Source: an uncultured virus (IMG/VR IMGVR_UViG_3300025138_000017) (Duplodnaviria; Heunggongvirae; Uroviricota; Caudoviricetes). From it: a stretch of DNA of 20,000 nucleotides. Below are positions 1 to 18,067 of the stretch, in pieces (within the stretch, counting starts at the first letter, position 1; the number at the start of each line of letters is the position of its first letter). The notes under the pieces are model-generated. The model saw nothing but the letters and a program-made list of their open reading frames with translations, had not been told where the DNA came from and did not search any database. Position numbers and translations under genes: made by a program. The stretch lies in the IMG/VR virus record IMGVR_UViG_3300025138_000017; one strand, given 5' to 3'.

Positions 1-354
1 TCCAATATATGCTCCCAAGGTATCGTCGAGCCATTGAGATTTCTCAATATATTTTTTAATCCAATCTTTTTCTTCGGAAGAAAATCTTTCTCCTTCCATT
101 TGTAGAGTTCTTTTTAATGTGGGTTCATTTAGATCATATCCATAACTGTCTGGTGGAAACCCATCATGTGTTTCTGCTGGTGTGCTCTTAACGCACTCTA
201 ATGAAGCAGCATACTCAGCTCTATCTTCTTTTTTAAATTTACCTTTTGTTTTCCAATTTGGTAAATTTACATCTGGTGGATTTGCTGATACCCAATCGCT
301 ATATTCATTTAAGACGGTCAAAAGATCCGTAGGTAGTGTCAAAAGTTGTCTCAT
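1..354 (-). CDS. Hypothetical phage protein, 3'-truncated by the window edge (not in the ORF track)
   Basis: ATG at 354-352 directly after an in-frame TAA-TCA, with a GGGAGG SD ~13 nt upstream. Frame is open for 118 codons to base 1 (MRQLLTLPTDLLTVLNEYSDWVSANPP...THDGFPPDSYGYDL...WLDDTLGAYIG). Overlaps the glycosyltransferase 3' end by 50 nt. Confidence 0.8.
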   Translation of the reverse strand, partial: MRQLLTLPTDLLTVLNEYSDWVSANPPDVNLPNWKTKGKFKKEDRAEYAASLECVKSTPAETHDGFPPDSYGYDLNEPTLKRTLQMEGERFSSEEKDWIKKYIEKSQWLDDTLGAYIG

Positions 355-1147
355 TGATTATAAAAGCCTCCCGCTTATGTACTTGCTTGGAATCTATAGT
401 GTAGTGCAAAAATGCTTTTTTAGATCCAGGCCTCAATTCAGTTTCACGATACCCTGTAACAAAATTATATTTTGCATCATTAGGCATCCTTTTTATATTT
501 ATCTGCATATCTGGATTTTCATATAATGCTCTCCAGAATGCAAATGTATCCCAATACGTTAGCCCTTTAGGAAACGGTTTGGTGTTCTTTTCAACTGTAT
601 GTCTTTTATACCAATACAGCCATTGCTCCCATAGTTTTTGTGTTCGCTCATTCTTACGCCAGACAAACATTCCACAATGCCATCTAAACTTATGAGCCTT
701 TCCTTGTTTGTATAACTCAACATGATCAGGATTATAGTGTTCTAACTCTTCTCCAGGTATACCGGGTCCTACTTGATCGTCGTGTGTAAAGTAAACGACT
801 TTAGCATTGTAAGGTCTATTCTCTGACATGACAACATCTGCATCACCTAATAAATCAAAAACTTCTTCTATTTCATTGCTTAGTACAAATCCATCTACAT
901 CCAAATAACATGTAACGTCAAATGGTGTCAATGGTAATGCCCATAACTTTGTTCTACAATGTACTGGTACTGGTGTTATAAGATGATCAAACAAATGTCT
1001 ATCTTCATCTCTTACCCACTCTTCATGAGTAAACACTGCTACCTTTGCATCAGGTACCTCATCTTTCAATGATTGAACGCACATAACCATTGCTTCATAG
1101 AATGGTTTTGATAATGTAGCTACTAAAAGATAACCTCTAGTTTCCAT
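305..1147 (-). CDS. Putative GT-A fold glycosyltransferase (GT8-like / nucleotide-diphospho-sugar transferase)
   Basis: N-terminal GYLLVAT strand, SLK...VAVFT, TKLWALPLTPFDVTCYLDVD (DxD motif) followed by IEEVFDLL, and HCGMF (NxG-like) later; start overlaps the upstream gene by 11 nt. Confidence 0.75.
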   Translation of the reverse strand: METRGYLLVATLSKPFYEAMVMCVQSLKDEVPDAKVAVFTHEEWVRDEDRHLFDHLITPVPVHCRTKLWALPLTPFDVTCYLDVDGFVLSNEIEEVFDLLGDADVVMSENRPYNAKVVYFTHDDQVGPGIPGEELEHYNPDHVELYKQGKAHKFRWHCGMFVWRKNERTQKLWEQWLYWYKRHTVEKNTKPFPKGLTYWDTFAFWRALYENPDMQINIKRMPNDAKYNFVTGYRETELRPGSKKAFLHYTIDSKQVHKREAFIINETTFDTTYGSFDRLK

Positions 1148-1670
1148 CCTTTTCAGCTTCCTTAATTAAAATAGCAGATCCAAATGCTCTTGCCTCTTCG
1201 GCCGTTAATGCTGATCTAAGTTTTCTTTTTAAATTTTTATGTTCTGTATTTTTAACAGTAGGTATATCAAGAAACATAGATTTAACATTCCATAAGTCTG
1301 CTCGAGACTTTTCTCTTTCTTCTGCCTTCTTCATTTCTTCTGATGATTTTGACAAAGCTGACTGTATTGCTGCTTGTCTTTTAGTATTATGTCTAACTTC
1401 ATCTTCACTAAATTGTCTTTTTATATCTCTATACAATGGATGGTTTTGATCTTTAGGAATTCCTTTTTCTTGAGTAGCCATTCCATCTGGTCTTAATAAC
1501 ACACATGATAATTCTGTCCGAGCATTATTTGTATAATGTGGATTTACAATTACCGGTAATGTAGGATCCAGATGTAACTCTGGAATTGGAAGAGTTCTTA
1601 GTTCTTCTTTCTTGGGGGTTTCGACTGTGACTCCTTCTGGAATCTTAGCCATTTTAGGTTCTTCTGCCAT
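1137..1670 (-). CDS. Hypothetical protein, 177 aa (possible fibre assembly chaperone)
   Basis: ATG with GAGGA SD (1677-1681) and an upstream TATAAATA; charged helical C-half; NPHYTNNARTELSCVL loosely recalls tail-fibre-assembly N-terminal motifs (weak). Confidence 0.8.
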   Translation of the reverse strand: MAEEPKMAKIPEGVTVETPKKEELRTLPIPELHLDPTLPVIVNPHYTNNARTELSCVLLRPDGMATQEKGIPKDQNHPLYRDIKRQFSEDEVRHNTKRQAAIQSALSKSSEEMKKAEEREKSRADLWNVKSMFLDIPTVKNTEHKNLKRKLRSALTAEEARAFGSAILIKEAEKDGN

Positions 1671-1724: not shown

Positions 1725-4700
1725 TTAAGCTGTTCTAACCCATAGTTTTAATGTTGTTATTGTTTCTGTACCAGCCTGTACTGTTTGTCCAGCATATGCA
1801 TGAGTATAGGTTCCTTCGTATTGGGCTACAAAGTTAGTTGTAAATGAACCCTCATATGCTTTTTCATATTGTTTAGTGTATTGGCCAATGTATGCTTTTT
1901 CGTATTGTGTTGTAAATGATCCCTCAAATAATTGCGTATAGGTCTTAACATAGTTACCTGTAAACTGCTGATCAAATTGACCAGAGTATGATTTTTCATA
2001 CAAGCCAACATATGCTTTTTCAAATTGTTGAGTAAACTGACCTGTAAATGTTCCTTCGTAATCTTTAGAATATATTTTTAACCAAGTACCAACATATGAT
2101 CTTTGGAATTCGCCTTCATATTGTTTAGTATATTGACCAAGATATTCGCCAGAGTATTGGCCAAGGAATGATCCAACCCAAGCCTTTTCAAACTGTCCTA
2201 CATATATGCCTTCATATTGTTTGTTAAATGATCCTTCAAACTGTTTACTAAATTGTTTTGCATATTGTTTAGTATATTGTCCTGTGTACTGTCCTAAGTA
2301 TGACTTGACGTATGAACCAGTAAACTCACCTTCATATGTTTTAGTATATTGTCCAACATATGATGCACCAAATTGGCCTTCAAAAGTTCCTGTATACTGT
2401 CCAATATATGTACCTTGATATATTCCCTGGTATGCATGTGCACCTTCATATATTCCTGTCCAGTATCCTATGTATACTCCTTCATATGTTTTTTCATACT
2501 GTCTTGTAAACTGGCCAGTGTATTGGCCATCATATTGTCCACTAAATGTTCTGTCACCTGTCCATTGCTTGGCATATGCTTTCTGATAGTTTGCACTTAC
2601 ATATGTTGTGTTGAAGACTCCTTCCCACTGATGAGCATATTGCCCCTCGTATGATCTGTCTCCTTCAAATTGACCTGCATATTGTTTTACATATTCAACT
2701 ACAAATACCTTTTGATAATTAGCTGAGTATTGTCCTGTATATGTTCTTGATCCAGAGTATGCTTTGGTATAGGTTTTATTAAATACTCCAGTGTATTGAG
2801 TGCCATACTGACCTGTATATGTTCTGTCGCCTTCATATTGTTTAGCAAATTGGCCTTCCCAGTTTCTAGCAAACGAACCTTCATATGTTTGACCATATTC
2901 TTTTTGATAGTTCTTAGTATAAGCTCTAGCGTATTGGCCTACAAACTGCGTATTGAATACTCCAACATATATTCCTTCGTATAATGTTAAGTATGTTTTG
3001 CCATATTGTCCAACAAATGATTTTAAGTAATCAGTTGTAAATGATCCTTGATATGATTTAGTATAGTTAGTATCAAATGAACCTTCATATAATGCTAAGT
3101 ATTGTTTATTGAATTGGCCTTCGTATGCTTTAACGAACAATCCAGTATATGTTTTAACATATGATGTTTCAAATACACCTTCATATGCTTTTTCATAATT
3201 AGTTGCAAACTGCCCTTCATAAGTTTTTTCGTAATTAGTTCCAAACTGGCCTGTGTATGTTGTGTCATAGTTTGTAGCAAATTGACCTTCATACAGTTTA
3301 GCATATTGTACTCCAAACGCACCCTCATATTGAGTAGTATATTGGCCTTCATATGCTTTAGCATATGTAGTATTGAAGTCTCCTTCGTATTGAGCTACAT
3401 AATCTTTAGCATAGTTTGTACTAAATATTCCTTCATACAATTTAGCATATTGTGTAGAAAACTGTCCTTCATATGCTTTAGCATATTGTTGTGTATAGTT
3501 AGTTGTGTATGTTCCTTCAAACACACCACCGTATATGTTTGTATATTGACCAATGTATGCTTTTGCATATTGCTCACTAAATTGTCCTAAGAATGCTTTA
3601 GAGTATGATCCAGTATATGCTTTTGCATATTGCTCAATATAATCTTTAGAGTAGTTGTCTGTAAATGCACCAGTAAACTGACTAGCATATTGTCCAAGAT
3701 ATGCTTGAGCATAGTTGACTGATTCCCCACCTGTAAACTCTCTTGCATAAGAACCTGTATATGTTTTCTGGTATTGGTTAACATAGTTCTTAGCATAGTT
3801 ATCTGTAAACTGTCCTTCGTATACATCTGTATATTGGCCTACATAATTCTTAGTATAATTGGTAGTATATGTTCCTTCAAACACTCCACCGTATATGTTA
3901 GTGTATTGACCAACATAGTTCTTAGCATATTGTGTTTGATATATTCCTACAAATGCTTTGGTGTAAGTTCCTGTATAATCTTTTTGGTAATTAGTAGAAT
4001 ATATTTTTGTATAGTTATCTGTATACTGGCCAGTGTACTGTCTGTCATAGTTTCCAGCATAAGTTTTAACATATTCAGTTACATAATCTTTAGCATAGTT
4101 ATCAGCAAATTGTCCTGTAAACTGTCTATCATAATTACCCTCATATTGCTTAGCATATTGAGCAATATAATCTTTAGCATAGTTGTCTGTAAATTGACCT
4201 TCATATGCTTTATCAAAATTCTTTATATATGATTTAGCATACTGTGTGGTATAGGTTCCTTCGAAGACACCACCATATATGTTCGTATATTGACCAACAT
4301 AATTCTTAGCATAATTTTCTGTAAACGCACCTTCGTATTGAGAAACAAATACACCCTCATATGTTTTAGTGTATTGTGTTGTGTATGCTCTTTCATATGA
4401 AGCTGCAAACAATCCTACATACTGACCTTCAAATTGTCCTTCATAGTTAGTAGCATATTGTCTTTCCCAGTTTTTAGTATAGTTGGTCGTAAACAATCCT
4501 GTGTATTGGTCTGTAAATTGACCTACGAATGCTTTTGTATAGTTTCCAGTATATGCTCTATCATAGTTGCCCGTATAGTCTCTAGTATAATTGGTTGTAT
4601 ATTGAGCATCAAATGATCCAGTAAATTGACTTGCATATTGTCCAACATAATTTTTGGTATAGTTAGTTGCATATGATCCAGCAAACACGCCACCGTATAT

Positions 4701-7700
4701 GTTTGTATATTGACCAACATAGTTCTTAGTATAGTTTGTTACATAATCTCTAGAATAATTGGTTGTGTATACTCCAACATATGCTTTTGTCCACTGACCT
4801 GAATATGCTTTTTGGAAGTTCTTATTATAGTTACCAGTAAACTGTCCGGCAAACCCTCTTGAGTATTGACCGATCCATTGTTGAGCATAGTTGGTTACAA
4901 ACGTACCCGCAAACACGCCTTCATATATATTTGTATATTGACCTACATATGCTTTCTGATAAGCAGTAGAGTAAGTTCCGTCAAACGAACCACCATATAT
5001 GTTTGTGTATTGGCCTACGTATGCTCTTTGATATGCTGTGTTATATGTTCCTGAAAATGCACCTTCATAGATATTCGTATATTGACCAACATAGTTTTTA
5101 GTATAATTGGTTGCATACTGGCCAGTAAAGGTTTTAGTATATTGACCAGTGTATTGTTTTAAATAGTTAGTAGCATATTGACCAGTATATGTTTTAGTAT
5201 ATTGTCCTGTATATGTCTTAGTATAATTTACATCATAGTTTTTAGTATAATTGGTTGCATACTGACCAGCAAACGCTTTTGTATATTGACCTGTGTACTG
5301 TTTTAAATAGTTTCTAGTATATGTTCCACTAAACTGTGTATTGTAAGTTCCAGAATATGCTCTATCATAGTTTCCAGCATAAGTCTTAGTGTAATTACCA
5401 GTATATGATTTTGTGTATTGACCAGTATATTGTCTTAAAAAGTTGGTAGCATACTGACCAGAATATCCTTTAGTATAATTACCAGTATAAGAACCTGTAT
5501 ACTGTCCAGTGTATGCTCCAGTATATTGACCTGCATATGCTCTTTGATAGCTAGTGTCATATTGTTTTAAATAGTTTTTATTATATGAACCACTAAACTG
5601 CTTAGTATATTGACCAGTATATTGTTTTAAATAATTGGTTCCATACTGGCCAGCAAATTGTCTATTATATGTACCACTAAACTGTTTGTTATAGTTACCT
5701 GCATATGCTCTAGTGTAGTTAGTTGCATATGTTCCACTATATTGTGTAGCGTATGTTCCTGTGTACTGTCCAGAATAAGCTGTTGAGAAATATCCTGTAT
5801 ATTGTTTAGTATAGTTGCCTGTAAATTGTCCTGTGTACTGTCCAGTAAATCCTCTAGTATATTGTCCTGTATACTGTCTTAAATAGTTAGTACTATAGGA
5901 CCCTGTATATGTTGTACTAAAGTATCCTGTATACTGACCTGAATATGTTGCAGTAGTTTGAGAGAAACAACCTTCGTATTCTTCAAAGTCATCATCACCA
6001 GTATCAATAAAGATTCTACAATATGTACCACCACTACTGAATTGTTGAGATACTGACCCTACAAATGTTCTAGTATAGTTAGTTGTTTTTACATAGTTTA
6101 AAAATTGGCTCCCAAATTTACTAGAGACAACCCTGTTGTAAGTTACATTACCAGCAAACTGTCTAGTATAATTTACATTTGCAGTACCAGTAAATTGTTG
6201 AACTGCCCCAACATAGTTTCCTGTATATTGAGTAGATCTGGTTACTCTTACATAGTTTCCTGAATAAGCTCTTGTATAGTTGGTTCCATATGATCCACTA
6301 TATTGTGAATTATATGTTCCGGAAAATTGACTACTATATGTTCCAGCAAATTGTTTTGAGTAGTTTGTAGTTCTAGTTACCCTAGAATAACTTCCTGTCC
6401 ATTGTCTTGAGAAGTTTCCTGTATACTGTCCTGTGTATTGTCTTGTATAGTTAGTGCTGTAATATCCAGTATATGTCTTAGTATAGTTTCCTGAATATGC
6501 TTTTGTATAGTTACCTGTATACTGTCTTAAAAAGTTAGTACCATATGTTCCACTATACTGTGCTGAGTATTGACCTGTGTACGATCTAGTAAAGTTAGTT
6601 CCATATTGTCTTGTATAGTTGGTAGCATAGTATCCTGTATACTGTCCAGAATAGGTTCCACTATACTGTCCTGAATATGCACCAGAGTATGCTCTGTCAT
6701 AATTTCCTGTATAATGTTTAGTATAGTTAGTTCCATATGTTCCAGCAAATTGACTGGTGTACGTGCCACTATATGCTCTATCATAGTTTCCAGTATATCT
6801 TTTAGTATAGTTACCTGTATATGATTTAGTATATTGACCTGTGTATGCTTTTTGGAAGTTAGTACCATACGTTCCACTATATTGAGAACTATAGTTACCT
6901 GTGTACTGTCTTTGATACTGAGCCGTATAAGTTTTTAAATAGTTTTTATTATAGTCACCAGAGTATGCTCTGTTATAGTTTCCCGTATAATGTTTAGTAT
7001 AGTTAGTTCCATATGTTCCAGAATATTGTTTATTGTAGTTACCTGTATACTGTCTAGTATAGTTAGTAGCAAATGACCCTTCCCATATTCTATCATACTG
7101 TCCTATATAAGAACCAACATATGCTTTAGTATAGTTTCTAGCAAATGATCCTTCCCATATTCTATCGTATTGTCCTACATAAGATCCAACATATGCTTTA
7201 GTATAGTTTCTAGTAAATGATCCTTCCCATATTCTATCGTATTGTCCTATGTACTGACCAACATATGCTTTCTGATATTGAGCTGCGTATGGTCCTAAGA
7301 ATGTTCCTGTGTATACTCCAGTCCATTGCGTCTGGAATAATTTAGTATAGTTGGTATTATATACGCCAGTGTAGGTGGTGTTATAGGAACCTTCATATGC
7401 TTTCTGATATTGTTTAACATAATTCTTAGCATAGTTTGTAGCAAATGAACCTTCCCAGATTCTATCATATTGTCCTACATATTGGCCAACATAGTTTTTA
7501 GTGTAATTCTTTGCAAACGTTCCTTCGAATGCTCCTGTGTATTGTCCTAGCCAAACTTTAGCATATTGCTTTGCATATGCTTTTTGATATACGCCTGTAT
7601 ATGTTTTGGTGTATACGCCTGTAAATATTGTAGAGTATACTCCTTCCCATATCTTGGTGTACTGGCCTTCATACTGTGCAGCCCATTGTACAAGATATGC

Positions 7701-10700
7701 TTTTTGATATTGTTTTGTATATACTCCAGTCCATTGTTTTGCATATGAACCTTCCCACTGTTGTGCGTATGCTGCAACATATTGTTTAGCATATTGTTTT
7801 GAATACTGACCGACATAAGCCTTTTCATATTGTCCAAGGTAAACTTTATCATATTGGGTAACAAATGTTCCTTCCCATATTCTATCATATTGGCCTACGT
7901 ATTGGCCAACATATGCTTTCTCGTATTGTTTTGAATAAGCCTTTTCATATGTTTTTACATATTGTCCGGTCCACTGTTGTTGATATTGAGCAACATAGTT
8001 TTTAGCATAGTTGGTTGTATACTGTCCTGTGAATCTTCCTTCGTATTGTCCAGCCCATTGTTGTAGGTATTGGGCAACATAGTTTTTAGCATATGCAGTT
8101 TGGAATTCACCTGCATATCTTTTTTCGTATATTCCTGTCCACTGTTGCTGGTATTGTGCTGCATAGTCTTTTTGATACTGACGAAGATAAACACCAACAT
8201 AGTCTGTCTCATAAGATCCTTCATAATCTTTGGTGTATTGAGTAACAAACGTACCTTCCCATATTCTATCGTATTGTCCTATGTACTGACCAACATATGC
8301 TTTTTCGTATTGTTTAGCAAATGTTCCTTCCCATTGCTTAGTGTACTGACCTGCCCATTGTTGTTCGTATTGGGTTACATAATCTTTAGCATAGTTAGTA
8401 TTATAGTCGCCATCAAATGCTCTTTCGTATGCACCAGCATATGCCTTTTGATATTGTGTTACAAACTGGCCTTCAAATGCTCCTGTGTATTGTCCTACCC
8501 ATTGTTGCTGATATTGCTTAACATAATTCTTAGCATAGTTGGTTTCATAGTCGCCAAGATATGCTTTAGAGTATGAGCCTTCGTATTGTTTATCGTATTG
8601 AGTAACAAACGTACCTTCCCATATTCTATCGTATTGTCCTACCCATTGACCAACATAAGCCTTTTCATATTGCTTACTATATTGTTTTACATATTGACCA
8701 ATGTAATCTTTTGTATATTGAGCTACGTATTGACCAACATATTCTTTTGTATATTGTGCAACATAGTTCTTAGCATATTGTCCTGTGTATGCTTTTATAT
8801 AATTTGTAGTATACTGACCACCATATTGACCAGCATAGAGACCTACATATGCTTGGCCCCAGTTTTGTTCATATAATCCTGTGTATTGATTAATCCACGT
8901 CTTACCGTATACGCCTGTATACTGTTGAAGATAATTACGTGCGTAGATTCCTGCATACTGTTTTAAGTATTGTGTTGCGTATTGGCCAACGTATTGTTTA
9001 GCATAACCTTTGTTCCAATTACTTAAATAATTCTTTTCATAGGATCCAACATATGCTTTCTCCCATATTCTATCATATTGGCCAACATATGTCTTTGTGT
9101 ATTGAGCTTCGTATATTCCAACATAATCTTTTGTGTATGTTTTTATATACTGGCCTATGAAATCCTTTTCGTAGTTCTTAATATAAGAACCTACATAAGC
9201 TCCTTCAAATGTTTTTTGATATGCTCCAACATAATCTTTATTATATGATGTAACATAATCTTTTATATAACCAGCAGTATAGTTACCAACATAATTAGCT
9301 TCTAAGAAATATCCTGAGAATAATTCTGAAGCACTATCATATTGTCCAGTGAATGTTCTATCACCTTCGTATTGTTTTGTATACTGACCTGTATATGCTT
9401 TTAAGTATCCTTGAGTATAGAAACCATTATATTCTCTATCACCCTCGTATGCTTTTGTAAATTGCTTTTGATAGTTTGTACCAAGATACCCTTTACTAAA
9501 GTTTTGAGTAAATTGGCCAGTGTATGTTCTTGTTCCAGTATATTGTTTTGTGTATTGACCTGTGTATGATGCTGTCCAATTACCAATATATATTTTTTGG
9601 TATTGATCTGCATACTGTCCTGTATATGTTCTACTACCAGCGTATGTGCCTTCGTATGAGCCCGTATACTGCTTTGCATATTGCTCAACATACTGTCCCG
9701 TATAGTTAGCTGCGAAAATGCCTTCAAACTGTTTTACGCCGGTGTAATACCCTGTGTATTGTCCATCGAACGAGCCTTCAAATTGTTTAGAGTATGCTCC
9801 AGTCCATTGTTGGCCAAATGATCCTTCATATTGTTTACTATACTGTCCTGTGTAAATTCCTGTATAAGTTGTATTAAAAGATCCTTCAAATACACCTTCG
9901 TATATTTTACTGAATGTTCCTTCAAATTGGCCTTCGTATTGCCCCAGGTATGCACCCATGTACTGTCCAGCAAACGCTCCGGAATATTGGGAAATAAAGA
10001 ATCCATCAAACGAGCCTTCATATTGCTTAGTAAATGAGCCTTCGTATTGTTTGCTGTACAGACCAGTATAAGACTTAAGATATATTTTATCATATTGGCC
10101 AACATACTGTTTAACATATACGCCTGTATATGTTCCTTCAAAAGAACCTTCGTATTGGGTTAAGAATGTTCCTTCGTATTGTTTTGTGTAGTTTCCAGAA
10201 AATGAACCTTCATACAATCCGGTATATGTTTTATTAAAGTTTCCTTCATATTGTCCAATATATTCTTTTGTATATTGGGAAACAAAGACACCCTCATATT
10301 GTTTTTCGTAATGGTGTGTGTATATACCGACATATTGCTTTGCATATTGAGATGCATATTGGCCAACATAGTTTGTATTGTATCCTATATCAGCTAAAGT
10401 GTTTCTATTATCAACAAATGATCCACCTACTTGTACCCAGGTCTCACCTGAAGCTGCAGGGTTAGTCGCTGATAATTTATATTGTCCTATACCAGTAGCA
10501 TATATTTGATTTCTCAATCTCATTGCTAATAGTTTTATCTCTGCATCGGACATCTCTTTAATTGCAGAGTTTTGAATTTTTGCTGTTCTAACAACAGAAG
10601 GTGCAGAAACACCTTGGGTCTTACGCCATAAGGTATATGTAGTCGTACCACCTAAAGTGGTATCGGTCATTGTGGATCCAGTACTTGTATAAAGGCTATT

Positions 10701-11129
10701 GTTGGGATTTGTTTCAGACAAGTGGTAGGATCCCAAACCGGACGATGTAAGATTCGCAAGTGCTCTTGATATAAGGACAGAGTTTAGAGTATTACTATGC
10801 TCAGATGCATAGCCGCTGTCATTAAGAAACAATGGGTACACCATAGATGTTTCTGCGATCGAATTGAGATTTTGTTTAAGTGTATATGTTTGGGACGTTA
10901 TATTATTAGCAGCTGGATGAGTACCTACGCTTTCTGTTCTATAGGTATCAGTGAAAGAACCCATTGAGGTTCCCTGTCCATTTATGTTTAAAGTACCAAG
11001 GCCAGAAGTGCTTGTTGAGAATTCAGATAGAATTTGATGGACGGCGTAATCCATCTCGGTAGTCTGCATTTCCTGCACACCGAGAAAAGTACCCCCTCCG
11101 GTCGTTTTTATTCTAAGTGGATTTCCCAA
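1725..11129 (-). CDS. Giant (3134 aa) aromatic-tetrapeptide repeat protein, probable virion fibre/filament with mirror-registered arms
   Basis: Uninterrupted 9.4-kb ORF with a TTG start 4 nt after the upstream stop; ~250-aa non-repetitive N-domain, then (Y/F/W)xxx repeats over aa 250-3112, then a short C-terminal strand; located in a tail-fibre cluster. Confidence 0.85.
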   Translation of the reverse strand: MGNPLRIKTTGGGTFLGVQEMQTTEMDYAVHQILSEFSTSTSGLGTLNINGQGTSMGSFTDTYRTESVGTHPAANNITSQTYTLKQNLNSIAETSMVYPLFLNDSGYASEHSNTLNSVLISRALANLTSSGLGSYHLSETNPNNSLYTSTGSTMTDTTLGGTTTYTLWRKTQGVSAPSVVRTAKIQNSAIKEMSDAEIKLLAMRLRNQIYATGIGQYKLSATNPAASGETWVQVGGSFVDNRNTLADIGYNTNYVGQYASQYAKQYVGIYTHHYEKQYEGVFVSQYTKEYIGQYEGNFNKTYTGLYEGSFSGNYTKQYEGTFLTQYEGSFEGTYTGVYVKQYVGQYDKIYLKSYTGLYSKQYEGSFTKQYEGSFDGFFISQYSGAFAGQYMGAYLGQYEGQFEGTFSKIYEGVFEGSFNTTYTGIYTGQYSKQYEGSFGQQWTGAYSKQFEGSFDGQYTGYYTGVKQFEGIFAANYTGQYVEQYAKQYTGSYEGTYAGSRTYTGQYADQYQKIYIGNWTASYTGQYTKQYTGTRTYTGQFTQNFSKGYLGTNYQKQFTKAYEGDREYNGFYTQGYLKAYTGQYTKQYEGDRTFTGQYDSASELFSGYFLEANYVGNYTAGYIKDYVTSYNKDYVGAYQKTFEGAYVGSYIKNYEKDFIGQYIKTYTKDYVGIYEAQYTKTYVGQYDRIWEKAYVGSYEKNYLSNWNKGYAKQYVGQYATQYLKQYAGIYARNYLQQYTGVYGKTWINQYTGLYEQNWGQAYVGLYAGQYGGQYTTNYIKAYTGQYAKNYVAQYTKEYVGQYVAQYTKDYIGQYVKQYSKQYEKAYVGQWVGQYDRIWEGTFVTQYDKQYEGSYSKAYLGDYETNYAKNYVKQYQQQWVGQYTGAFEGQFVTQYQKAYAGAYERAFDGDYNTNYAKDYVTQYEQQWAGQYTKQWEGTFAKQYEKAYVGQYIGQYDRIWEGTFVTQYTKDYEGSYETDYVGVYLRQYQKDYAAQYQQQWTGIYEKRYAGEFQTAYAKNYVAQYLQQWAGQYEGRFTGQYTTNYAKNYVAQYQQQWTGQYVKTYEKAYSKQYEKAYVGQYVGQYDRIWEGTFVTQYDKVYLGQYEKAYVGQYSKQYAKQYVAAYAQQWEGSYAKQWTGVYTKQYQKAYLVQWAAQYEGQYTKIWEGVYSTIFTGVYTKTYTGVYQKAYAKQYAKVWLGQYTGAFEGTFAKNYTKNYVGQYVGQYDRIWEGSFATNYAKNYVKQYQKAYEGSYNTTYTGVYNTNYTKLFQTQWTGVYTGTFLGPYAAQYQKAYVGQYIGQYDRIWEGSFTRNYTKAYVGSYVGQYDRIWEGSFARNYTKAYVGSYIGQYDRIWEGSFATNYTRQYTGNYNKQYSGTYGTNYTKHYTGNYNRAYSGDYNKNYLKTYTAQYQRQYTGNYSSQYSGTYGTNFQKAYTGQYTKSYTGNYTKRYTGNYDRAYSGTYTSQFAGTYGTNYTKHYTGNYDRAYSGAYSGQYSGTYSGQYTGYYATNYTRQYGTNFTRSYTGQYSAQYSGTYGTNFLRQYTGNYTKAYSGNYTKTYTGYYSTNYTRQYTGQYTGNFSRQWTGSYSRVTRTTNYSKQFAGTYSSQFSGTYNSQYSGSYGTNYTRAYSGNYVRVTRSTQYTGNYVGAVQQFTGTANVNYTRQFAGNVTYNRVVSSKFGSQFLNYVKTTNYTRTFVGSVSQQFSSGGTYCRIFIDTGDDDFEEYEGCFSQTTATYSGQYTGYFSTTYTGSYSTNYLRQYTGQYTRGFTGQYTGQFTGNYTKQYTGYFSTAYSGQYTGTYATQYSGTYATNYTRAYAGNYNKQFSGTYNRQFAGQYGTNYLKQYTGQYTKQFSGSYNKNYLKQYDTSYQRAYAGQYTGAYTGQYTGSYTGNYTKGYSGQYATNFLRQYTGQYTKSYTGNYTKTYAGNYDRAYSGTYNTQFSGTYTRNYLKQYTGQYTKAFAGQYATNYTKNYDVNYTKTYTGQYTKTYTGQYATNYLKQYTGQYTKTFTGQYATNYTKNYVGQYTNIYEGAFSGTYNTAYQRAYVGQYTNIYGGSFDGTYSTAYQKAYVGQYTNIYEGVFAGTFVTNYAQQWIGQYSRGFAGQFTGNYNKNFQKAYSGQWTKAYVGVYTTNYSRDYVTNYTKNYVGQYTNIYGGVFAGSYATNYTKNYVGQYASQFTGSFDAQYTTNYTRDYTGNYDRAYTGNYTKAFVGQFTDQYTGLFTTNYTKNWERQYATNYEGQFEGQYVGLFAASYERAYTTQYTKTYEGVFVSQYEGAFTENYAKNYVGQYTNIYGGVFEGTYTTQYAKSYIKNFDKAYEGQFTDNYAKDYIAQYAKQYEGNYDRQFTGQFADNYAKDYVTEYVKTYAGNYDRQYTGQYTDNYTKIYSTNYQKDYTGTYTKAFVGIYQTQYAKNYVGQYTNIYGGVFEGTYTTNYTKNYVGQYTDVYEGQFTDNYAKNYVNQYQKTYTGSYAREFTGGESVNYAQAYLGQYASQFTGAFTDNYSKDYIEQYAKAYTGSYSKAFLGQFSEQYAKAYIGQYTNIYGGVFEGTYTTNYTQQYAKAYEGQFSTQYAKLYEGIFSTNYAKDYVAQYEGDFNTTYAKAYEGQYTTQYEGAFGVQYAKLYEGQFATNYDTTYTGQFGTNYEKTYEGQFATNYEKAYEGVFETSYVKTYTGLFVKAYEGQFNKQYLALYEGSFDTNYTKSYQGSFTTDYLKSFVGQYGKTYLTLYEGIYVGVFNTQFVGQYARAYTKNYQKEYGQTYEGSFARNWEGQFAKQYEGDRTYTGQYGTQYTGVFNKTYTKAYSGSRTYTGQYSANYQKVFVVEYVKQYAGQFEGDRSYEGQYAHQWEGVFNTTYVSANYQKAYAKQWTGDRTFSGQYDGQYTGQFTRQYEKTYEGVYIGYWTGIYEGAHAYQGIYQGTYIGQYTGTFEGQFGASYVGQYTKTYEGEFTGSYVKSYLGQYTGQYTKQYAKQFSKQFEGSFNKQYEGIYVGQFEKAWVGSFLGQYSGEYLGQYTKQYEGEFQRSYVGTWLKIYSKDYEGTFTGQFTQQFEKAYVGLYEKSYSGQFDQQFTGNYVKTYTQLFEGSFTTQYEKAYIGQYTKQYEKAYEGSFTTNFVAQYEGTYTHAYAGQTVQAGTETITTLKLWVRTA
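1794..10382 (-). repeat. Degenerate 12-nt / 4-aa coding repeat array (e.g. YTGQ, YEGQ, YTKN, YVGQ)
   Basis: Aromatic residue at nearly every fourth position for ~2,860 aa; higher-order 24-aa (72-nt) and 120-aa (360-nt) duplications, e.g. an identical 47-nt stretch at 8235-8281 and 8595-8641. Confidence 0.95.
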
Positions 11130-11133
11130 TTTA

Positions 11134-14100
11134 CTAAGCCTTTAATTTAAACGCGCTATCCCCAAATACGCTACCAGTATTTATAAAACTTACTCGACTA
11201 GCATCATAACCTATTATAGCTGATCCTGGCTCGCCTCCGTTTCCTGACTGTGCGTATTGAGAATAGTGGGTTCCTGGGTTAGCAACATTCTGTGATGCAT
11301 CTGAGTCATCATTATACCCGCCTGCACCTGTTCCTAGTTGACCTAGTAATCCACCATTTCCTCCATGTATGCCTAATGCTGTGGATGCATTAGTGCCATT
11401 TCTATCTGAACTGCTTTCTGAAATGAAAGCTCCTGAATTCCATCCAGCACCAGTTCCACCGATGCCTCCAGAGCTACTTACTCCGTTTACGGGATAGCCA
11501 CCGCCACCTCCGCCACCACCGCCACCGGCGATGATACCATAATTTTCTATATAAACTTCTATACCGTTACCCATCTTAATAGCGTCACCACCATTAGCAC
11601 CATTCTGTCCAGTTGTAGCACCTAGACCAGCTACACCAGATTTACCAATAATATTTCCATCTGGTTTAACTAATATTTTAACTTTATGGTTAATATTTTG
11701 AATAGCTCCAAATCCTGATAAGTCAAGTGCTGGTGTAGTTTGATGATCTGAATATACATATACATCATCTGCTATTGTAATGTTAACATGTTGAGGTCTT
11801 GTTGCTTTTGATTTACCTAAGCTACTTAAATGAGCTGATAGGTTAAATTGTGATGTATTACTAGAAAGAGTTATATCTGTTCTTTCATAATTGACGCCTG
11901 TTATCTTCCATTGGCCGTCTTCTTTCTTTCTTACAATTGATACATCTCTCCATGCATCATTTTCTTTTATTTTTATATCTTTAGCTTGTTTCCATATGCT
12001 AGCATCTTTCACTCTAATTAAGCCACCATCATCTGTTAGCTCACCACTCTTAGTGTTAGCTACTGCAGTAGTTGTCACATATGAAGTATGGAATGTTTGA
12101 GGTCCTGCAAAGTTTGTTGCAAATCTCAAGGTGTCTCCTATACTGGCATAAGCCCCTTGATATACTCCACCATATGCTTTTACATAAGCACCTACGTATG
12201 TTTTATTAAATGCACCTTCATATAATTTAGAATACACTTTACCAAACTGAGCACCAAATTGTCCTTCGTATTCTTTAGTATATTGTTTGACGTATACTTT
12301 ATTATACACTCCTACAAATGCACCTTCATACTGACCTGTGAATAGAGCTCCATATTGTTTAATATATTGGCCTATAAATGTTCCTGTGTATTGACCAAGG
12401 TACACGCCTTCGTATGCTTTGATATAATTCTTTTCAAAGTTGTGTGTAACTAGTCCAGTAAAGTTTCCATTTGCTGATGCGTTGTATAAAGCTGGTCCTT
12501 GGAATTGTCTTGAATATACACCTGTCCAATGTTGAGTATATGTTTTAACATAGTCTTTATTATATTGACCAATGTACTGTCCTGTGTATGCTTTTTCATA
12601 TTGCTTTACAAAAGAACCTTCAAACAATCTTGAGTATTGTCCTACCCATATTTTATTGTAAACCTTTTCATATGCTTTAGAATATTGCTTTGTATATATT
12701 CCTGTATAGTAACCAATATAATATCCTATTGTTGTCCATGTCTTTTCATACTGTTTTAGATATCCTTTTTGATAAGACCTTGACCATCCGCTGGCGCCTC
12801 CAGCTCCATAATAAAGGGTTTTACTATGCATATAGCTTGAGGTAAATTGACCCCCGTAATGAGCTATAAAATTCACACCAGAATTGACTCCTAGATAACC
12901 AGTTCTTGCATCTGACCATGCAGATAGGTAGAACATGAGGTCAACCAAGGTTGAACCTTTGATGTATGCTTGCGGGCCCGAATCCGAATATGATTTTGCA
13001 TACGTTGCCAGGTTGCCAGTTGCTCCAAGATAAGAATTTAACTCCAAATCTTCAAAGTTTCTTTGATAATAAACACCACCTGTTCCTTGATATCCCGTTG
13101 CATCTGCACCAGCCTCTGGGTCCGCATCGGCAGTATTGCCACCAATATATGCTCTTGTCTGTGCACCAGTATATTGAGTTATGAATTCGCCACCCAGCAG
13201 GCCTGCTTTGGAATAAACGGTTCCACCAGACGCATAATACAGTGTACCAAATTCTCTATTGTTACCTTGTTCCCAAGACACACCTTGTGCGTTTAGATAA
13301 CTTCCTGTGCTCCCGGATGCATAGTTAGTACCACCACTATCTGAATAGTTAAGTACTTGAGATGGTGTGTCAGATGCGTTTACAAATAAACGAGAATAGC
13401 CTATATCGCCACTCCATGATTTAGAGTATTGAGCTGTAAAACCTAGGGAAACTGTACCCTCAAACCCTTCACCATCTTCTTCAGAATAAGTATTAACTAC
13501 TCTTACGTATGCGGTACCTTGATAATAGATCCCTTCGTACTGACTAGTTGCACCCCAAAATTTGCTGAAGTGGCGGAGAAATTGCGACTCATAATTTCCT
13601 ATATAAGTTTTGGCCCAAGTTTTGTAATACGATTTGTGATATTGCTTTAAGTACTCTTTTCCATAATGAGCAATATAATTTAAGTTTTCTGATCTATATG
13701 AATTAAATACTCCTTCATAATCCTTACTGTAATGTTTTGTCCACTGCGTAGTATAAGCTGCACCAAAACTTCCTTCAAAGGTTCCTTCGTATTGTCCTAG
13801 ATATGCTTTCTCGTATTGAGTGGTGAATACGCCCTCGTACACACCTTCGTATGTTTTAGTGTATGTTTTACTATAAGAAAGTCCGGATGCAAATGTTCCT
13901 TCAAATGCACCCTCGTACATTACTAGATAAGGACCACCTAAAAATTGTTTAGCAAATTGACGAGAGTAGCTAGCTATATAACTTTTATTATAATAACCAG
14001 TAAACGCTCCTTCAAACTGTCTGTTGAAAGCTCCCTCATAAGTCTTGCTAAAGCTATTACCAAACTGTCCTTCAAATTGACTAGTAAATGAACCTTCGTA

Positions 14101-14349
14101 AGCCTTGCTGTATTCTTTGCTGTATTGTTTTGAGTATACGCCTAACCACACACCATCGTATTGTTTGCCCCATTGTTTTTCGTATTGGCCTAGATATGTT
14201 TTTGTGTAGTCGCCTAGATAAGTTTTTAGATATGACGCAAGAAAATGCTCTATGCCTCTAATTTGATTAGCATAGTTAGTCCCAACATAGGATGCTGCGA
14301 ACTGTCTATCGTCACCTGCGAAAGACTTTGCGTAATTAATATCTGCCAC
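11134..14349 (-). CDS. 1071-aa tetrapeptide-repeat protein with C-terminal gp38-like glycine-rich adhesin domain
   Basis: GTG start with GGGGAG SD (14355-14360); Yxxx repeats at aa ~40-290 and ~525-734; Trp-spaced linker (IWKQ..AWRD..GQWK); C-terminal GGDAIKMG...IENYGIIAGGGGGGGGG and further Gly-rich motifs typical of T2/T6/S16 gp38 polyglycine adhesins. Confidence 0.75.
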   Translation of the reverse strand: MADINYAKSFAGDDRQFAASYVGTNYANQIRGIEHFLASYLKTYLGDYTKTYLGQYEKQWGKQYDGVWLGVYSKQYSKEYSKAYEGSFTSQFEGQFGNSFSKTYEGAFNRQFEGAFTGYYNKSYIASYSRQFAKQFLGGPYLVMYEGAFEGTFASGLSYSKTYTKTYEGVYEGVFTTQYEKAYLGQYEGTFEGSFGAAYTTQWTKHYSKDYEGVFNSYRSENLNYIAHYGKEYLKQYHKSYYKTWAKTYIGNYESQFLRHFSKFWGATSQYEGIYYQGTAYVRVVNTYSEEDGEGFEGTVSLGFTAQYSKSWSGDIGYSRLFVNASDTPSQVLNYSDSGGTNYASGSTGSYLNAQGVSWEQGNNREFGTLYYASGGTVYSKAGLLGGEFITQYTGAQTRAYIGGNTADADPEAGADATGYQGTGGVYYQRNFEDLELNSYLGATGNLATYAKSYSDSGPQAYIKGSTLVDLMFYLSAWSDARTGYLGVNSGVNFIAHYGGQFTSSYMHSKTLYYGAGGASGWSRSYQKGYLKQYEKTWTTIGYYIGYYTGIYTKQYSKAYEKVYNKIWVGQYSRLFEGSFVKQYEKAYTGQYIGQYNKDYVKTYTQHWTGVYSRQFQGPALYNASANGNFTGLVTHNFEKNYIKAYEGVYLGQYTGTFIGQYIKQYGALFTGQYEGAFVGVYNKVYVKQYTKEYEGQFGAQFGKVYSKLYEGAFNKTYVGAYVKAYGGVYQGAYASIGDTLRFATNFAGPQTFHTSYVTTTAVANTKSGELTDDGGLIRVKDASIWKQAKDIKIKENDAWRDVSIVRKKEDGQWKITGVNYERTDITLSSNTSQFNLSAHLSSLGKSKATRPQHVNITIADDVYVYSDHQTTPALDLSGFGAIQNINHKVKILVKPDGNIIGKSGVAGLGATTGQNGANGGDAIKMGNGIEVYIENYGIIAGGGGGGGGGGYPVNGVSSSGGIGGTGAGWNSGAFISESSSDRNGTNASTALGIHGGNGGLLGQLGTGAGGYNDDSDASQNVANPGTHYSQYAQSGNGGEPGSAIIGYDASRVSFINTGSVFGDSAFKLKA
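11178..11185 (-). promoter_or_regulatory. Possible T4-type late promoter (TATAAATA) for the giant gene
   Basis: Exact consensus inside the 3' end of the upstream gene, ~50 nt before the giant ORF start; chance matches are plausible in AT-rich DNA. Confidence 0.45.
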
Positions 14350-14360
14350 TCAGGCTCCCC

Positions 14361-14699
14361 TTATGTTAGAGTCTGATACCAGATGTCGCCGTTAGTGCCT
14401 ATAGAGTTACTACTTGGTGCTGAACTAGATATGTATATCTTTTGATTAGGTGTATGTGCAAATGATCCACTTGCTACACCTGCTGCATTAGTATTTGCAA
14501 ATGTTACACCAGTGACGTTTACAGACGTATTAGATGCTGCTGTTATTCTACCTTTAGCATTTACTGTGAACGTAACTAATTGAGTATTATTCGAAGTGTG
14601 CGTTGCTGCACTTACACCAGTATCTGATAAAGCTGTATCAACAACCTTAGCTGATGAATTAACTACCTCGGTACTGCCGTGTAAAATTTGATCAGACAT
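14361..14699 (-). CDS. Small tail-fibre-motif protein (112 aa), possible adaptor
   Basis: Contains LSDTGVSAA...FTVNAKGRITAASN and ISSSAPS...GTNGDIWYQ, both common phage tail-fibre motifs; start overlaps the upstream stop by 8 nt. Confidence 0.7.
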   Translation of the reverse strand: MSDQILHGSTEVVNSSAKVVDTALSDTGVSAATHTSNNTQLVTFTVNAKGRITAASNTSVNVTGVTFANTNAAGVASGSFAHTPNQKIYISSSAPSSNSIGTNGDIWYQTLT

Positions 14700-17600
14700 C
14701 TTCTTCCTCGTTTTCCTCTACATTAGGTTCTAGTTCTTTTACTCTTTCGGTCAACTCTTTGACGGCTTCTATCAGTAATGGTATCAGCGCATTATAGTTA
14801 ACTGTTTTAAACCCACGACTATTTATATCTACAGCGTGAGGCAACACGTTCTCCAATTCTTGAGCTATAACCCCATAGTCTGGTGTTCCAACTCTCATGT
14901 CTCCGATGTTGTTATTCCATACAAATTCATAACCACCAAGAGCATTTACTTTATCTAATGCAGTGTCTATCTTTAATATGTTATCTTTTAATTGTTGGTC
15001 TGATGAATAACTAGCTACTAGATCATCAGTAGCGTATATGTTATTTGCCAATACAGCTGTAGTATTAGCTAACGTATCTCCAACTACTATGCTAGTATCA
15101 AAGTATCCATTTTTGAATGATTTAGCTGCTGAGCCAATATCCCATTGATTGGTATTTGATGCAAACACATGACCATTAACTGAAGCATTTGCAAATACTA
15201 ATTGAACAGTATTTGCTCCATTACCAATTTGTACTATATTATTACCTGCGCCAGTTGTAGATGCTCCTGTTAACTTAAGAGAATTTGTAACTGTTACATT
15301 TGCAGATCCTAATTCAGTAGCTGTTAATGTTGTGTCTGATGGGAATTGAGCTGATACTCCAACCTGTAAGTGATCAACAACTAAGTTGTTAGATGTTAAT
15401 GCTGTTGCGTTAGCACTTATACCAGTATTAGAGAATATAACATTACTTGTATTTGCTAATGTAATATCATCACCAACTGATAGATCACCAACAATAGCAC
15501 CGGACGCTGCATTTACTTCTCCAGTAATGTCTACGTCTCCACCTGCTGTTATAACTCCTGATGTGTTTATTGTTGCACCAATTAGATCCCATCTAGCACT
15601 TGCAGCACCTAAGGTTAATCCATTAGCATTCGGTAAGACATTAGAAGCAACATCTGCTGTAAATGTTACTTTGTCTGTTGCAGCACTACCTATGATTGTA
15701 TTACCTGAAACTGTTAAGTCATTTCTTATTACTGCATTGTAAACATTTGCTTCTTTGTTATCAGCTATATCTAAATCATTTGATAATGTAGTAACTCCAA
15801 CAATGTTTGCTGATCCTGATAATGTTGTAGCACCTGTTACACCAAGTGTGTTTGCAAGAGATGCTGCTTTTAATACTGTTAAGGTTCCATCTGTGTGAAC
15901 AGCTGTAGAAGTTAATGATGTGTTTACTGTACTATTACCTACTGATAATTTAGATGCAGATAAGTTTACGTTTGCGCCTACATTATAGGCTACTGTTGTA
16001 TTAGATGTTCCTGTAACTGCTATACCATCACCAAAGGTTGCGTGGCCTGTATGTGTTGATAGTGTTGTGACTTTTAATACATTTGTATTTGTTGTTGCAG
16101 CTGCTTCTATATTAGCACTTGCTGTTATAACGCCTGTAGATGTAAGTGTACCAGATGTGTTTGCATTTGTAAATGACGCATTGTGCCATCTGTGATTTGT
16201 GTCACCAAGTACAACATTATTACCGTGTAGAGGTATAAGACCTTGTGTACTATTTCCAACTAATCCTTTTACTATAAGTCTATCAAAACCGTGTGTTGCG
16301 TTTGCTGCACCTGCATTACCTAAAGTTATTGTTCTGGTATTACCTGCTAATGATGTTACTAATGTATTGACTGTTGAGTTAGCAACAGTGAATTGAGCAT
16401 TAACAGATACATTGCCACCAACTGTAGCATTTCTAGTTATTGTTAAATCATTGTTGGATGTTATATCTTCACCGACTAAATCATCAGCTACTACATCCCA
16501 TCTTGCTGCTACGCTACCTAAACTTTTACTTCCATTAGCACTCGGTATTATGTTTGTATCGACTACACCAACAACTGATATTGTATCGCTTGCTGCTGAG
16601 CCTAAATCTGTATTGCCTTGAACTACAAGGTCTGTGTCTATGTTTACTGATGCATCAAAGTCTGCATCTTTAGTAACTTTTATTTTATCTGAGAATACTG
16701 CGTTAGCTGTAACTGTTAATAGATCACTATTAGCATTACCAATAGTAGCATTAGCTGTAGTTGTTAGGATCCCATCAATGTTTGTTGCTGAATTAATATC
16801 TAAATTCGTACCATGAATATTCATATTGGTAGAATCTATTAATGTGTTTGTTCCTGATACATTAAAGTCTGTTGACGTGATATCGGTTAATGCATTGTCA
16901 ACATCTAAGTTTGCATTTGCATCTATCTTAGTATTGAATATGTTAGTTGTAGCATTAGAAGTAAATGTTACTGCTGTTGCATCCATCTCTACTGCTGTGC
17001 TATTAGCTTTTAATACACCAGCATTGATATCTATTACTGCTGCATCTATGTTTACATTTGAACTTACATTAAACTCACCACCGTTAATTGCTGTGTTAGT
17101 AGATGAGAAATTGGTTAATGTATTATTAAAGTCTGCATCAGCATTAATGTCTAGTGGTGTATTGAATACATTGAGTCCAGCATTTGATGTAAATATATTT
17201 GCAGTAGGATCTATATTAATCTTATGTGTTGTTGAATTACTCTGTGTTACATTAAGTGCACCAGCCAGTACATCAAAGCTAGCTGCATCAAAGTTTACAT
17301 TAGATGTAATATTTAATTCACCATTTTCAACAACTGTATTACTAGATGTTATTTGTGTTAATGTATTGTCAATATCTAAGGTTGCATTTAGATCTATCTT
17401 AGTATTGAATATATTTGTTACTGCATTGGATTCAAATACTTTTGCAGTAGAATTAATTGTTAGATTGTTTGAAGTAGAGTTTGTTGTTAGTTGTACGCCA
17501 GGTGCAAAGTGTGCATTTGATTGTGCATGTATTATTGCATTAGCTGTACTGTTAGCTATGAATACTACATTTGAACTAATAATTAAATTAGCTGCTGCAG

Positions 17601-17847: not shown

Positions 17848-18067
17848 TTGACTTCACCTCTGCTAACTGTATTATCATTTGCTTTATCTCTACCATATCC
17901 TGTTTTAAACTTTGCACTTCATTGCTAAGTTGATTTACTGTTCCAGCTTTTGCTCTTTGACTTTTGTATTGAACATATGCAGCCTTATCAGTATTTATGA
18001 GAGCCATTGATGACTTGTCTCTAAATATTCCTTGTGCTTCTGTCTCTATTAATGTTATCTTAGCCAT
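17840..18067 (-). CDS. Small hypothetical protein (75 aa) with C-terminal coiled coil
   Basis: TAATG overlap with the upstream gene and 8-nt overlap downstream; RDKSSMALINTD...Y motif resembles small proteins that follow VrlC-like genes in T4-like marine phages (from recall). Confidence 0.8.
   Translation of the reverse strand: MAKITLIETEAQGIFRDKSSMALINTDKAAYVQYKSQRAKAGTVNQLSNEVQSLKQDMVEIKQMIIQLAEVKSNG

Follow-up and report, generated by a model that had tools for sequence, protein, structure and literature searches.

Mirrored stutters in a giant aromatic-repeat protein of a marine T4-like phage suggest a very long antiparallel hairpin

Several described systems share single features with the protein studied here. 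OspA-based self-assembly mimics and tryptophan-zipper hairpins have antiparallel strands with cross-strand aromatics on one face and no conventional hydrophobic core, and stutters or stammers of coiled coils are conserved local breaks of the period at the same height in all partner strands. For the distal needle of T4 gp37, the structural description assigns residues 811-881 and 1010-1026 to domain D10 and places seven iron ions on histidines (PMC6957217). Here, we analyzed a 20,000-nucleotide stretch of DNA (hereafter the window) from an uncultured virus of the Caudoviricetes (IMG/VR record IMGVR_UViG_3300025138_000017), in which a single gene encodes a giant protein of 3,134 amino acids (aa) made mostly of four-residue aromatic repeats. 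A previous sequence-only reading of the window had noticed that short breaks of this period (stutters) in one half of the protein are mirrored in the other half, and had suggested that matching bulges could form a hinge or knee. We found that the mirror symmetry of the stutters is real and lies far past chance. Residue statistics indicate that the two halves of the protein very probably pair in antiparallel orientation. It is likely that the repeat region is an intramolecular two-stranded beta-hairpin of a phage fibre, with about 1,400 residues per arm.

Mirror symmetry of the two repeat arms

The repeat region (aa 250-3112) consists of tetrads of the form [Y/F/W] - [T/E/V/A] - [G/K/T/R] - [Q/N/S/A], and 663 of the 726 aromatic-to-aromatic gaps in the giant protein span four residues. 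The region contains 18% Tyr, 12% Gly, 10% Gln and 0.2% His, with Pro and Met essentially nil. The layout is as follows, from the N to the C terminus (mirror sum, S, is the sum of two opposed residue positions, i and S-i):

1725..11129, minus strand: putative giant fibre gene, a 9.4-kb open reading frame of 3,134 aa, with a TTG start 5 nucleotides past the stop of the upstream gene
10395..11129, minus strand: N-terminal globular base domain, aa 1-245
9744..10382, minus strand: N-arm base segment, aa 250-462, perfectly 4-periodic; partner aa 2900-3112, mirror sum 3362
9291..9746, minus strand: N-arm stutter zone, aa 462-613, with 6-residue gaps at Y462, Y496, Y530, Y561 and Y587, a 5-residue gap at Y548-Y553 and an irregular patch, YDSASELFSGYFLEANY, at 597-613
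6387..9293, minus strand: N-arm inner segment, aa 613-1581, with eight YDRIWE landmarks; sum 3366 in four sub-blocks
6186..6389, minus strand: N-arm near-apex segment, aa 1581-1648, with two 9-residue gaps (SRVTRTTN, VRVTRSTQ) opposite YTGYF motifs of the C arm
5973..6185, minus strand: apex (presumed distal tip), aa 1649-1719, non-repetitive
2835..5972, minus strand: C-arm near-apex and inner segment, aa 1720-2765, with seven YTNIY[EG]G landmarks
2430..2837, minus strand: C-arm stutter zone, aa 2765-2900, with 6-residue gaps at Y2765, Y2791, F2821, W2856 and Y2894 and a 5-residue gap at Y2843-Y2848
1794..2432, minus strand: C-arm base segment, aa 2900-3112
1728..1793, minus strand: C-terminal tail, aa 3113-3134, ending in ...TLKLWVRTA and kept across the family

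When residue classes at positions i and S-i were compared, the mutual information had one sharp peak at S=3366 (1.45, with a mean of 0.30 and a standard deviation of 0.13). Four separate 240-aa sub-blocks each gave this sum as well, and the base segment gave S=3362. At S=3366 aromatic residues lie opposite aromatic residues, and Gly lies opposite Gly at 91/95 sites midway between aromatics, the mid-sites otherwise having Lys, Thr or Arg opposite Thr, Lys or Arg. Agreement between glycine and non-glycine (G/non-G) states reached 231/241 in this register, compared with a mean of 126.6 and a maximum of 151 for 100 other in-phase sums and a best value of 162 among the parallel offsets (n=103). In a blind windowed scan, 15 N-arm blocks reached z>=3.5; S=3366 ranked first in 13 of these and tied second in one, and 3362 came first in the base block. 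Since the order of G and non-G sites is aperiodic, it acts as a barcode that fits one register only. This pairing pattern (G:G, aromatic:aromatic) runs to F1646:F1722 and ends there.

The landmark motifs follow the same rule. Seven of the eight N-arm YDRIWE copies and the seven C-arm YTNIY[EG]G copies have start sums of exactly 3364, their spacings are mirrored (24, 24, 76, 140, 128 and 120 residues), and at S=3366 the two kinds of landmark oppose each other unit for unit. In sequence, G-Q-Y-D-R-I-W-E-G of the N arm faces G-Q-Y-T-N-I-Y-[G/E]-G of the C arm (aa 686-1350 and 2018-2535), and the eighth YDRIWE unit faces YLALYEG. These units place one Ile per strand on an otherwise polar face, at irregular mirrored intervals, and may be contact patches for other chains or proteins.

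Other measures gave mixed results. A palindromic alignment of the gap strings scored 94 for the giant protein and at most 44.6 in 10 shuffles, and gave trivial or background-level values in the distant relatives P0003, P0004 and P0007 (see below). Aromatic-only local mirror scans were uninformative in regular regions and in the distant relatives P0005 and P0007, a crude combined mirror score gave nothing even for the giant protein, and charge complementarity between the arms had no peak.

With regard to the stutters themselves, the motif G[DST]R[TSE][YF] has eight matches in the whole protein, at G498, G532, G563 and G589 and at G2767, G2793, G2823 and G2858, and the mirror sums reported for them (3356, 3355, 3356 and 3356) were reproduced. 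The same holds for GVKQF (G464) and GAHAY (G2896), whose sum is 3360 as had been noted, and the interval 2442-9740 given for the whole pattern corresponds to aa 464-2896. Each stutter, GVKQF and GAHAY included, is one 6-residue aromatic gap, so that there are five per arm. A phase map of all deviations from the period, which had been proposed as a check, confirmed that the 6-residue gaps are mirrored and revealed an irregular 16-residue patch at aa 597-613, present in the N arm only. This patch was absent from the earlier list, and so were two 5-residue gaps (Y548-LGTN-Y553 and Y2843-VSAN-Y2848). The suggestion that the symmetry reaches almost to the base also held, the outermost regular segments (aa 250-462 and 2900-3112) having 213 aa each and a sum of 3362. 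When the four C-arm stutters were placed randomly, their sums fell within a range of 1 in 0/2,000,000 trials; with the outermost pair held at its observed sites, the fraction of random placements that matched was 0.0017. The stutter spacings are 34, 34, 31 and 26 residues in the N arm and, read from N to C, 26, 30, 35 and 38 in the C arm, and because they are reversed between the arms, direct duplication cannot be their cause.

Homologues and the pairing of the stutters

The N-terminal domain was scanned against viral and metagenome contigs. Full-length relatives were L004 (2,838 aa), L005 (2,645 aa), L007 (2,436 aa) and L016 (2,317 aa), and L017 was read over 2,878 aa, its N end being lost at the contig end. 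L014 equals L007 in length and positions and was left out of the counts. Six distinct proteins of 2,317-3,134 aa, the giant protein included, were compared. Their 6-residue gaps are listed below, with sums taken as N start plus C end:

Giant protein: N 462, 496, 530, 561, 587; C 2765, 2791, 2821, 2856, 2894; sums 3362, 3358, 3357, 3358, 3358
L004: N as in the giant protein; C 2468, 2494, 2524, 2559, 2597; sums 3065, 3061, 3060, 3061, 3061
L017: five N and five C; sums 3007, 3003, 3002, 3003, 3003
L005: N 696, 730, 764, 795; C 2070, 2100, 2135, 2173; sums 2875, 2871, 2870, 2871
L007: four N and four C; sums 2671, 2667, 2666, 2667
L016: four N and four C; sums 2554, 2550, 2549, 2550

There are thus 5+5 stutters in the giant protein, L004 and L017 and 4+4 in L005, L007 and L016, and the sum pattern +4, 0, -1, 0, (0) is found in 6/6 distinct proteins. 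In all six the two halves agree in the number and place of their stutters; independent variation of the halves, named by the sequence-only reading as the outcome that would count against it, was not seen. The two 5-residue gaps are also kept in all six. The stutter zone is the most conserved part of the arms, with identities of 62-74% in the N arm and 55-70% in the C arm compared with 46-61% in the adjacent base segments and, for the N-arm base segment taken by itself, 47-61%. Its spacings (34, 34, 31, (26)) are invariant, whereas the flanking regular segments range from 213 to 445 and from ~380 to 970 aa. The base segments measure 213/213 aa in one group of proteins and ~445/445 aa in the other.

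The arms also match in register and length outside the stutter zone. L004, L005 and L007 have the same kind of single-S peak in mutual information, with G/non-G concordances of 196/209, 140/145 and 82/94, respectively. Between the giant protein and L004, every arm indel is a multiple of 4 and sits at a mirrored site. In the N arm, +32 at 980-1011, +16 at 1157-1172 and +4 at 1191-1194 are matched in the C arm by +32 at 2353-2384, +16 at 2190-2205 and +4 at 2172-2175, respectively. The summed indel runs from 0 to 140 along the N arm and from -1 to 139 along the C arm, and the arm indels of L005 and L007 likewise track each other. The barcode is mostly conserved, and the few discordant pairs stem from single-arm changes.

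Two registers were compared for the stutter zone. Register A keeps the base-segment sum of 3362 (3361 between the two 5-residue gaps), and register B, that of the sequence-only reading, directly opposes the 6-residue gaps with an aromatic sum of 3358. In four proteins, Gly faces Gly in the zone at 14/18, 14/17, 13/15 and 14/16 sites under register A, compared with 4/18, 6/17, 5/15 and 6/16 under register B. Register A has no surplus through the fifth stutter and then +4 with the N-arm patch, or 0 in L005, which is without the patch. Register A is favoured because the G:G rule, which holds at 91/95 sites elsewhere, favours the base-segment register. On these grounds, the stutters appear more apt to pair as whole GxRxArxG units, with opposite pairs such as G498:G2864, R500:F2862, Y502:R2860 and G504:G2858. 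Such unit-on-unit pairing is consistent with the conservation of the whole G-x-R-x-Ar-x-G motif, the second Gly included. The geometry assumed previously was probably off by one tetrad, and the notion of matching bulges was not supported: the same two extra residues are present on both arms, neither strand is longer, and the G:G pairs favour the unit-on-unit arrangement.

The alternative is that the stutters are directly opposed (the G498 region against the G2858 region, sum 3358) as matched bulges that make a knee or hinge, which we consider unlikely. Direct opposition pairs aromatic with aromatic at 30/31, 30/30, 27/27 and 27/27 sites in the stutter zones of the four proteins, and here register A does worse (25/31 vs 30/31), which counts against unit-on-unit pairing. 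The conservation of the zone in sequence and spacing, between flanks that vary greatly in length, would suit a special mechanical element. However, direct opposition needs a 4-residue C-arm surplus after the first stutter and then a compensating N-arm surplus of 8 residues, or of 4 in L005, whose sequence is regular at that place. The G:G rule is violated too, as the low counts given above for register B show, and an even, equal insertion on both strands makes no bulge.

Other elements of the zone are more suited to a bend. The two 5-residue gaps, one per arm and ~34 residues apart, flank the third stutter, and the mirror sum falls by one between them and then recovers. For the following aromatic to stay on the same face after a 5-residue gap, a beta-bulge must form. 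As these gaps and the 4-residue N-arm insertion (597-613) are true asymmetries, they are better candidates for a bend than the stutters; a hinge role for the zone as such is doubtful. A complex prediction of aa 450-612 with aa 2746-2908, run without controls, scored 0.00 and was used neither for nor against any arrangement.

We rate somewhat lower still the idea that the main role of the stutter zone is to dock another protein, in which case the mirrored stutters would expose Arg-containing patches at fixed intervals. Possible partners include the conserved 177-aa and 280-aa products encoded downstream, the tetrad-repeat fibre encoded by the neighbouring gene or some part of the virion. This idea draws on the fact that no part of the arms is better conserved than the zone, where the spacings 34, 34 and 31 do not vary, and on the two downstream genes accompanying the giant gene in L004, L005 and L007 (the 280-aa one also in phage C48C1). 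On the other hand, there is no direct sign of any partner, and the conservation is equally explained by the need for the arms to match.

A probable hairpin between a conserved base and a variable apex

The ends of the giant protein recur in much smaller proteins. A search with the N-terminal domain gave 316 metagenomic relatives at E<=1e-3, of which 40 reached E<=1e-30; most of the 316 are fragments, and many relatives are short complete proteins that end in a ...LWxRTA strand and have a small aromatic-periodic stretch in between. Among the complete short members, P0030 (296 aa), P0045 (291 aa) and P0020 (415 aa) carry the N domain and the C tail of the family, separated by only about 25-150 residues. 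The C-terminal strand LW.R[TV]A was found in the giant protein, L004, L005, L007, L016, L017, P0020, P0030, P0045 and P0002-P0007, and ...LWxRTA is present in the consensus of alignments A1 and A2. An AlphaFold2 (AF2) model of P0020 based on 61 sequences has a confidence (pLDDT) >90 for the N domain and C tail, the C tail reaching 97. Since the short members have the same ends, it looks as if a hairpin joining the final two elements of a small domain had been drawn out to an extreme length in the giant protein.

Foldseek searches for the base domain against PDB and BFVD returned nothing at E<=0.001, and the comparison with the MABP / MACPF C-terminal beta-prism fold gave a best VIA-align Z of 6.4 (root-mean-square deviation 3.5 over 116 residues), which is below the tool's meaningful level. 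In PDB sequence searches, a 301-aa repeat stretch had a best E of 0.54 and the N-domain profile had 0 matches. The ESM Atlas listed only viral "hypothetical protein" clusters for the N domain (score <=0.84), and a homologous-protein search with this domain gave 47 matches, none with an informative name. The giant protein, its N-terminal domain included, matched 0 Pfam families, and its weak match to PHROG 2468 (E 6e-5) had no stretch passing. An open-access literature search found no paper on such a protein, and the query "C48C1" gave one unrelated paper only. As far as these searches reach, no structure, Pfam family or paper appears to describe this kind of protein.

The apex is the least alignable part among the homologues. 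The viral contig G001 encodes a near-identical 3,134-aa copy of the giant protein (99.9% identical, four substitutions), and three of the four substitutions fall within the apex. The TTG start (11127-11129) is common to both copies, and L004, L005 and L007 have ATG at the matching place. Six of the 12 real nucleotide differences between the two copies lie in codons 1650, 1713 and 1715. All three bases of codon 1713 (GAT/TCA) and two of codon 1715 (TTT/AAT) are changed; these two codons (window 5985-5993) belong to the apex loop IDTGDDDFEE, and codon 1650 corresponds to window 6180-6182. The differences at the presumed tip thus form a local hot spot and are not confined to adenines. The giant protein has only two cysteines, C1704 inside the apex and C1721 two residues beyond its end. 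L007 has exactly two as well, both in the apex (C1352 and C1365), and cysteines are absent from L004 and L005. Some members may have a disulfide at the tip.

Taken as a hairpin, the N arm would run out for ~1,400 residues, turn in the ~70-residue apex and return as the C arm, with residue i beside residue S-i and both chain ends clamped in one globular base formed by the N-terminal domain and the C-terminal strand. The ribbon would have one face on which aromatic lies opposite aromatic at every fourth residue, with Gly:Gly or Lys/Arg/Thr:Lys/Thr pairs between, and the barcode, identical on both arms, would fix a single register. In a 4-periodic zipper, slips by multiples of four would leave the aromatics paired. 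The stutters would be shortened G-x-R-x-Ar-x-G units, their two Gly being 6 residues apart rather than 4 or 8. They would lie at equal height on both arms with Arg opposite an aromatic, and would produce a two-residue shift of the aromatic phase in the two strands together, leaving the inter-strand register intact. Unequally spaced phase shifts of this kind, together with the barcode, would throw every slipped register out of phase. The two 5-residue gaps would each add one residue and cancel, and the N-arm patch would add 4 in most homologues. We propose with some reserve, and lean slightly against it, that the stutter zone is a register key against slipped pairing; such a key, a mechanical joint and a docking site are not mutually exclusive. 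The apex would be the host-binding tip.

The sequence statistics fit equally well with pairing between chains, in which two extended molecules would align antiparallel, each N arm meeting the C arm of its partner. In such a dimer the relation of i to S-i would be unchanged, and every C tail would again lie next to an N domain. We consider it improbable, and pairing within one chain likely, because the short members carry the same N domain and C tail with a short stretch between, because AF2 of P0020 is confident for these two parts, and because pairing stops at 1646/1722 and leaves a non-repetitive apex. In a dimer the centre should self-pair, yet aa 1649-1719 loses the pattern and varies. Short members leave only ~25-45 residues between N domain and C tail, and two identical fibre ends would suit neither attachment to the virion nor a single hypervariable tip.

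Several points weigh against the intramolecular hairpin and its paired arms. The hairpin model has no structural support; the arms of the P0020 prediction have a pLDDT of 34-55, and AF2 of the apex (aa 1501-1830) without an alignment gave 31 and is unusable. The contact between C tail and N domain is suggested solely by confidence values and by alignment ranges that cover both. Simple burial of the aromatic face in a trimer core is made less likely by the Lys residues that it carries. The 5+5/4+4 and 213/445 differences split the same two clades, and the homologues therefore record few independent events. Compensatory change of the glycine barcode was not seen site by site: in the comparison of the giant protein with L004, 192 sites were unchanged, 1 had changed on both arms and 20 on one, and other homologue pairs had 2-9 changes on both arms compared with 9-15 on one. 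The covariation evidence hence lies at the level of indels and modules, not of single sites. Finally, a barcode scan of the distant relatives P0003, P0004, P0005 and P0007, which have 25-28% identity, other repeat types and inserted globular domains, gave 0 blocks with z>=3.5.

That the mirror pattern is a chance or tandem-duplication by-product of a low-complexity protein has a negligible probability in our view, for while extreme repetitiveness makes many self-matches expected and aromatic-only scans are uninformative in regular parts, 0/2,000,000 random placements match, parallel offsets reach <=162/241 vs 231/241 mirrored, the spacings are reversed rather than repeated, and the pattern recurs in six homologues of different lengths.

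Genomic context and comparison with known systems

The genes around the giant gene are as follows:

18067-19956, minus strand: VrlC-like gene, with best matches in T4-like phages of Caulobacter and Sinorhizobium, plus many cyanophages
14692-17847, minus strand: fibre gene (1,051 aa) with a C-terminal S74 intramolecular chaperone domain (PF13884, E 1.3e-13)
upstream of the giant gene, minus strand: 112-aa gene
11134-14349, minus strand: 1,071-aa gene (P0164) with a gp38-type adhesin domain at its end
1137-1670, minus strand: 177-aa gene downstream of the giant gene, with no Pfam or PHROG match
305-1147, minus strand: 280-aa gene downstream of the giant gene, with no Pfam or PHROG match

The VrlC-like protein matched 823 phage records, the majority of them, by count, from Synechococcus phages. 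When the phage collection was searched by megablast with the neighbouring fibre genes (11134-17847), no match was obtained. In marine pelagimyophages and cyanomyophages, which have a G+C content of ~34-35%, tail fibres are described as part of a hypervariable "host recognition cluster" that lies downstream of VrlC and extends between it and gp14 (PMC7029224). The G+C content of the window is 32-40%. The giant gene is located within the host-recognition gene cluster of a marine T4-like phage. A fibre role is proposed because it follows the VrlC-like, S74-chaperone fibre and gp38-adhesin genes and because three of the four G001 differences fall in the apex.

Genes for the 177-aa and 280-aa proteins also follow the giant gene in L004, L005 and L007 (identities 50-72% and 70-89%), and a 30%-identical relative of the 280-aa gene lies just downstream of the giant gene of phage C48C1. 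Both products are candidates for assembly factors or partners. P0164 has the same aromatic tetrads, in blocks at ~aa 36-260 and 545-735 round an irregular middle, and the G/non-G pattern of these blocks is mirrored (19/25 at S=766, next best 15; 13/14 at S=763). From this pattern, P0164 may be a smaller hairpin of the same kind. Three of the distant relatives, P0003, P0004 and P0006, have globular insertions within their C-terminal repeats, with precomputed Pfam assignments to PF14312 and PF13385. We take these to be FG-GAP-like and concanavalin-like lectin domains, respectively, which would suit host-surface binding.

With a rise of ~0.33 nm per residue in a beta-strand, 1,400 residues would span up to ~0.45 micrometre if straight, and the stutter zone would be some 70-120 nm away from the base. 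Plausible, and not quite as probable as its contrary, is a wider reading in which the giant protein represents a new class of natural filament: a hairpin grown from a loop of a small globular domain into a ribbon of up to ~0.45 micrometre, its register set by an aperiodic barcode and paired stutter keys and its length tuned by mirrored tetrad insertions. It would serve marine phages as a long host-capture line with a hypervariable tip, several T4-type tail lengths long. If true, this would be by far the longest beta-hairpin known and a natural answer to how repetitive strands of 1,400 residues find one register, an answer legible from sequence in G opposite G, paired shortened units and compensating one-residue gaps. 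It would give a role to a family of at least 316 unannotated marine virome proteins, indicate that abundant T4-like marine phages have a type of host-recognition appendage not recognised so far, and offer a design principle for protein nanofibres in which length is set by repeat number.

The sole match to the giant protein among 50,697 phage records, and the one cultured carrier identified, was the hypothetical protein WJE88074.1 of phage C48C1 (OQ984149, Kyanoviridae; 3,347 aa). It shares the N-terminal domain, a C-terminal ...TLYVRVA, long aromatic-periodic repeats and a tail-fibre neighbourhood with the giant protein, but has 26% identity, mixed 4- and 8-residue R-rich repeats and several globular insertions, and mirror pairing was not detected in its near relatives P0003 and P0004.

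Among characterized systems, the distal needle of T4 gp37 is similar in that its chain runs out to the tip and back, with the receptor-binding tip at the turn, and in that its gene belongs to a T4-like tail-fibre module. The fold-back feature of gp37-type needles would be matched in the giant protein, as far as the mirror statistics indicate. However, the T4 needle is trimeric and has a few dozen residues per arm, compared with ~1,400 per arm and a 4-residue aromatic tetrad here; the HxH motif of the gp37 iron sites is absent from the 3,134 aa, and Pfam, PHROG and PDB searches revealed no sequence or profile similarity to gp37 or other tail-fibre families. By analogy, the giant protein would resemble a fold-back fibre in its working rather than as a member of the gp37 family. 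The OspA mimics and tryptophan zippers, natural or designed, comprise tens of residues, none with a glycine barcode, stutters or hundreds of repeats. Coiled coils break an alpha-helical heptad period, whereas in the giant protein it would be beta strands that carry a two-residue break in a tetrad period.

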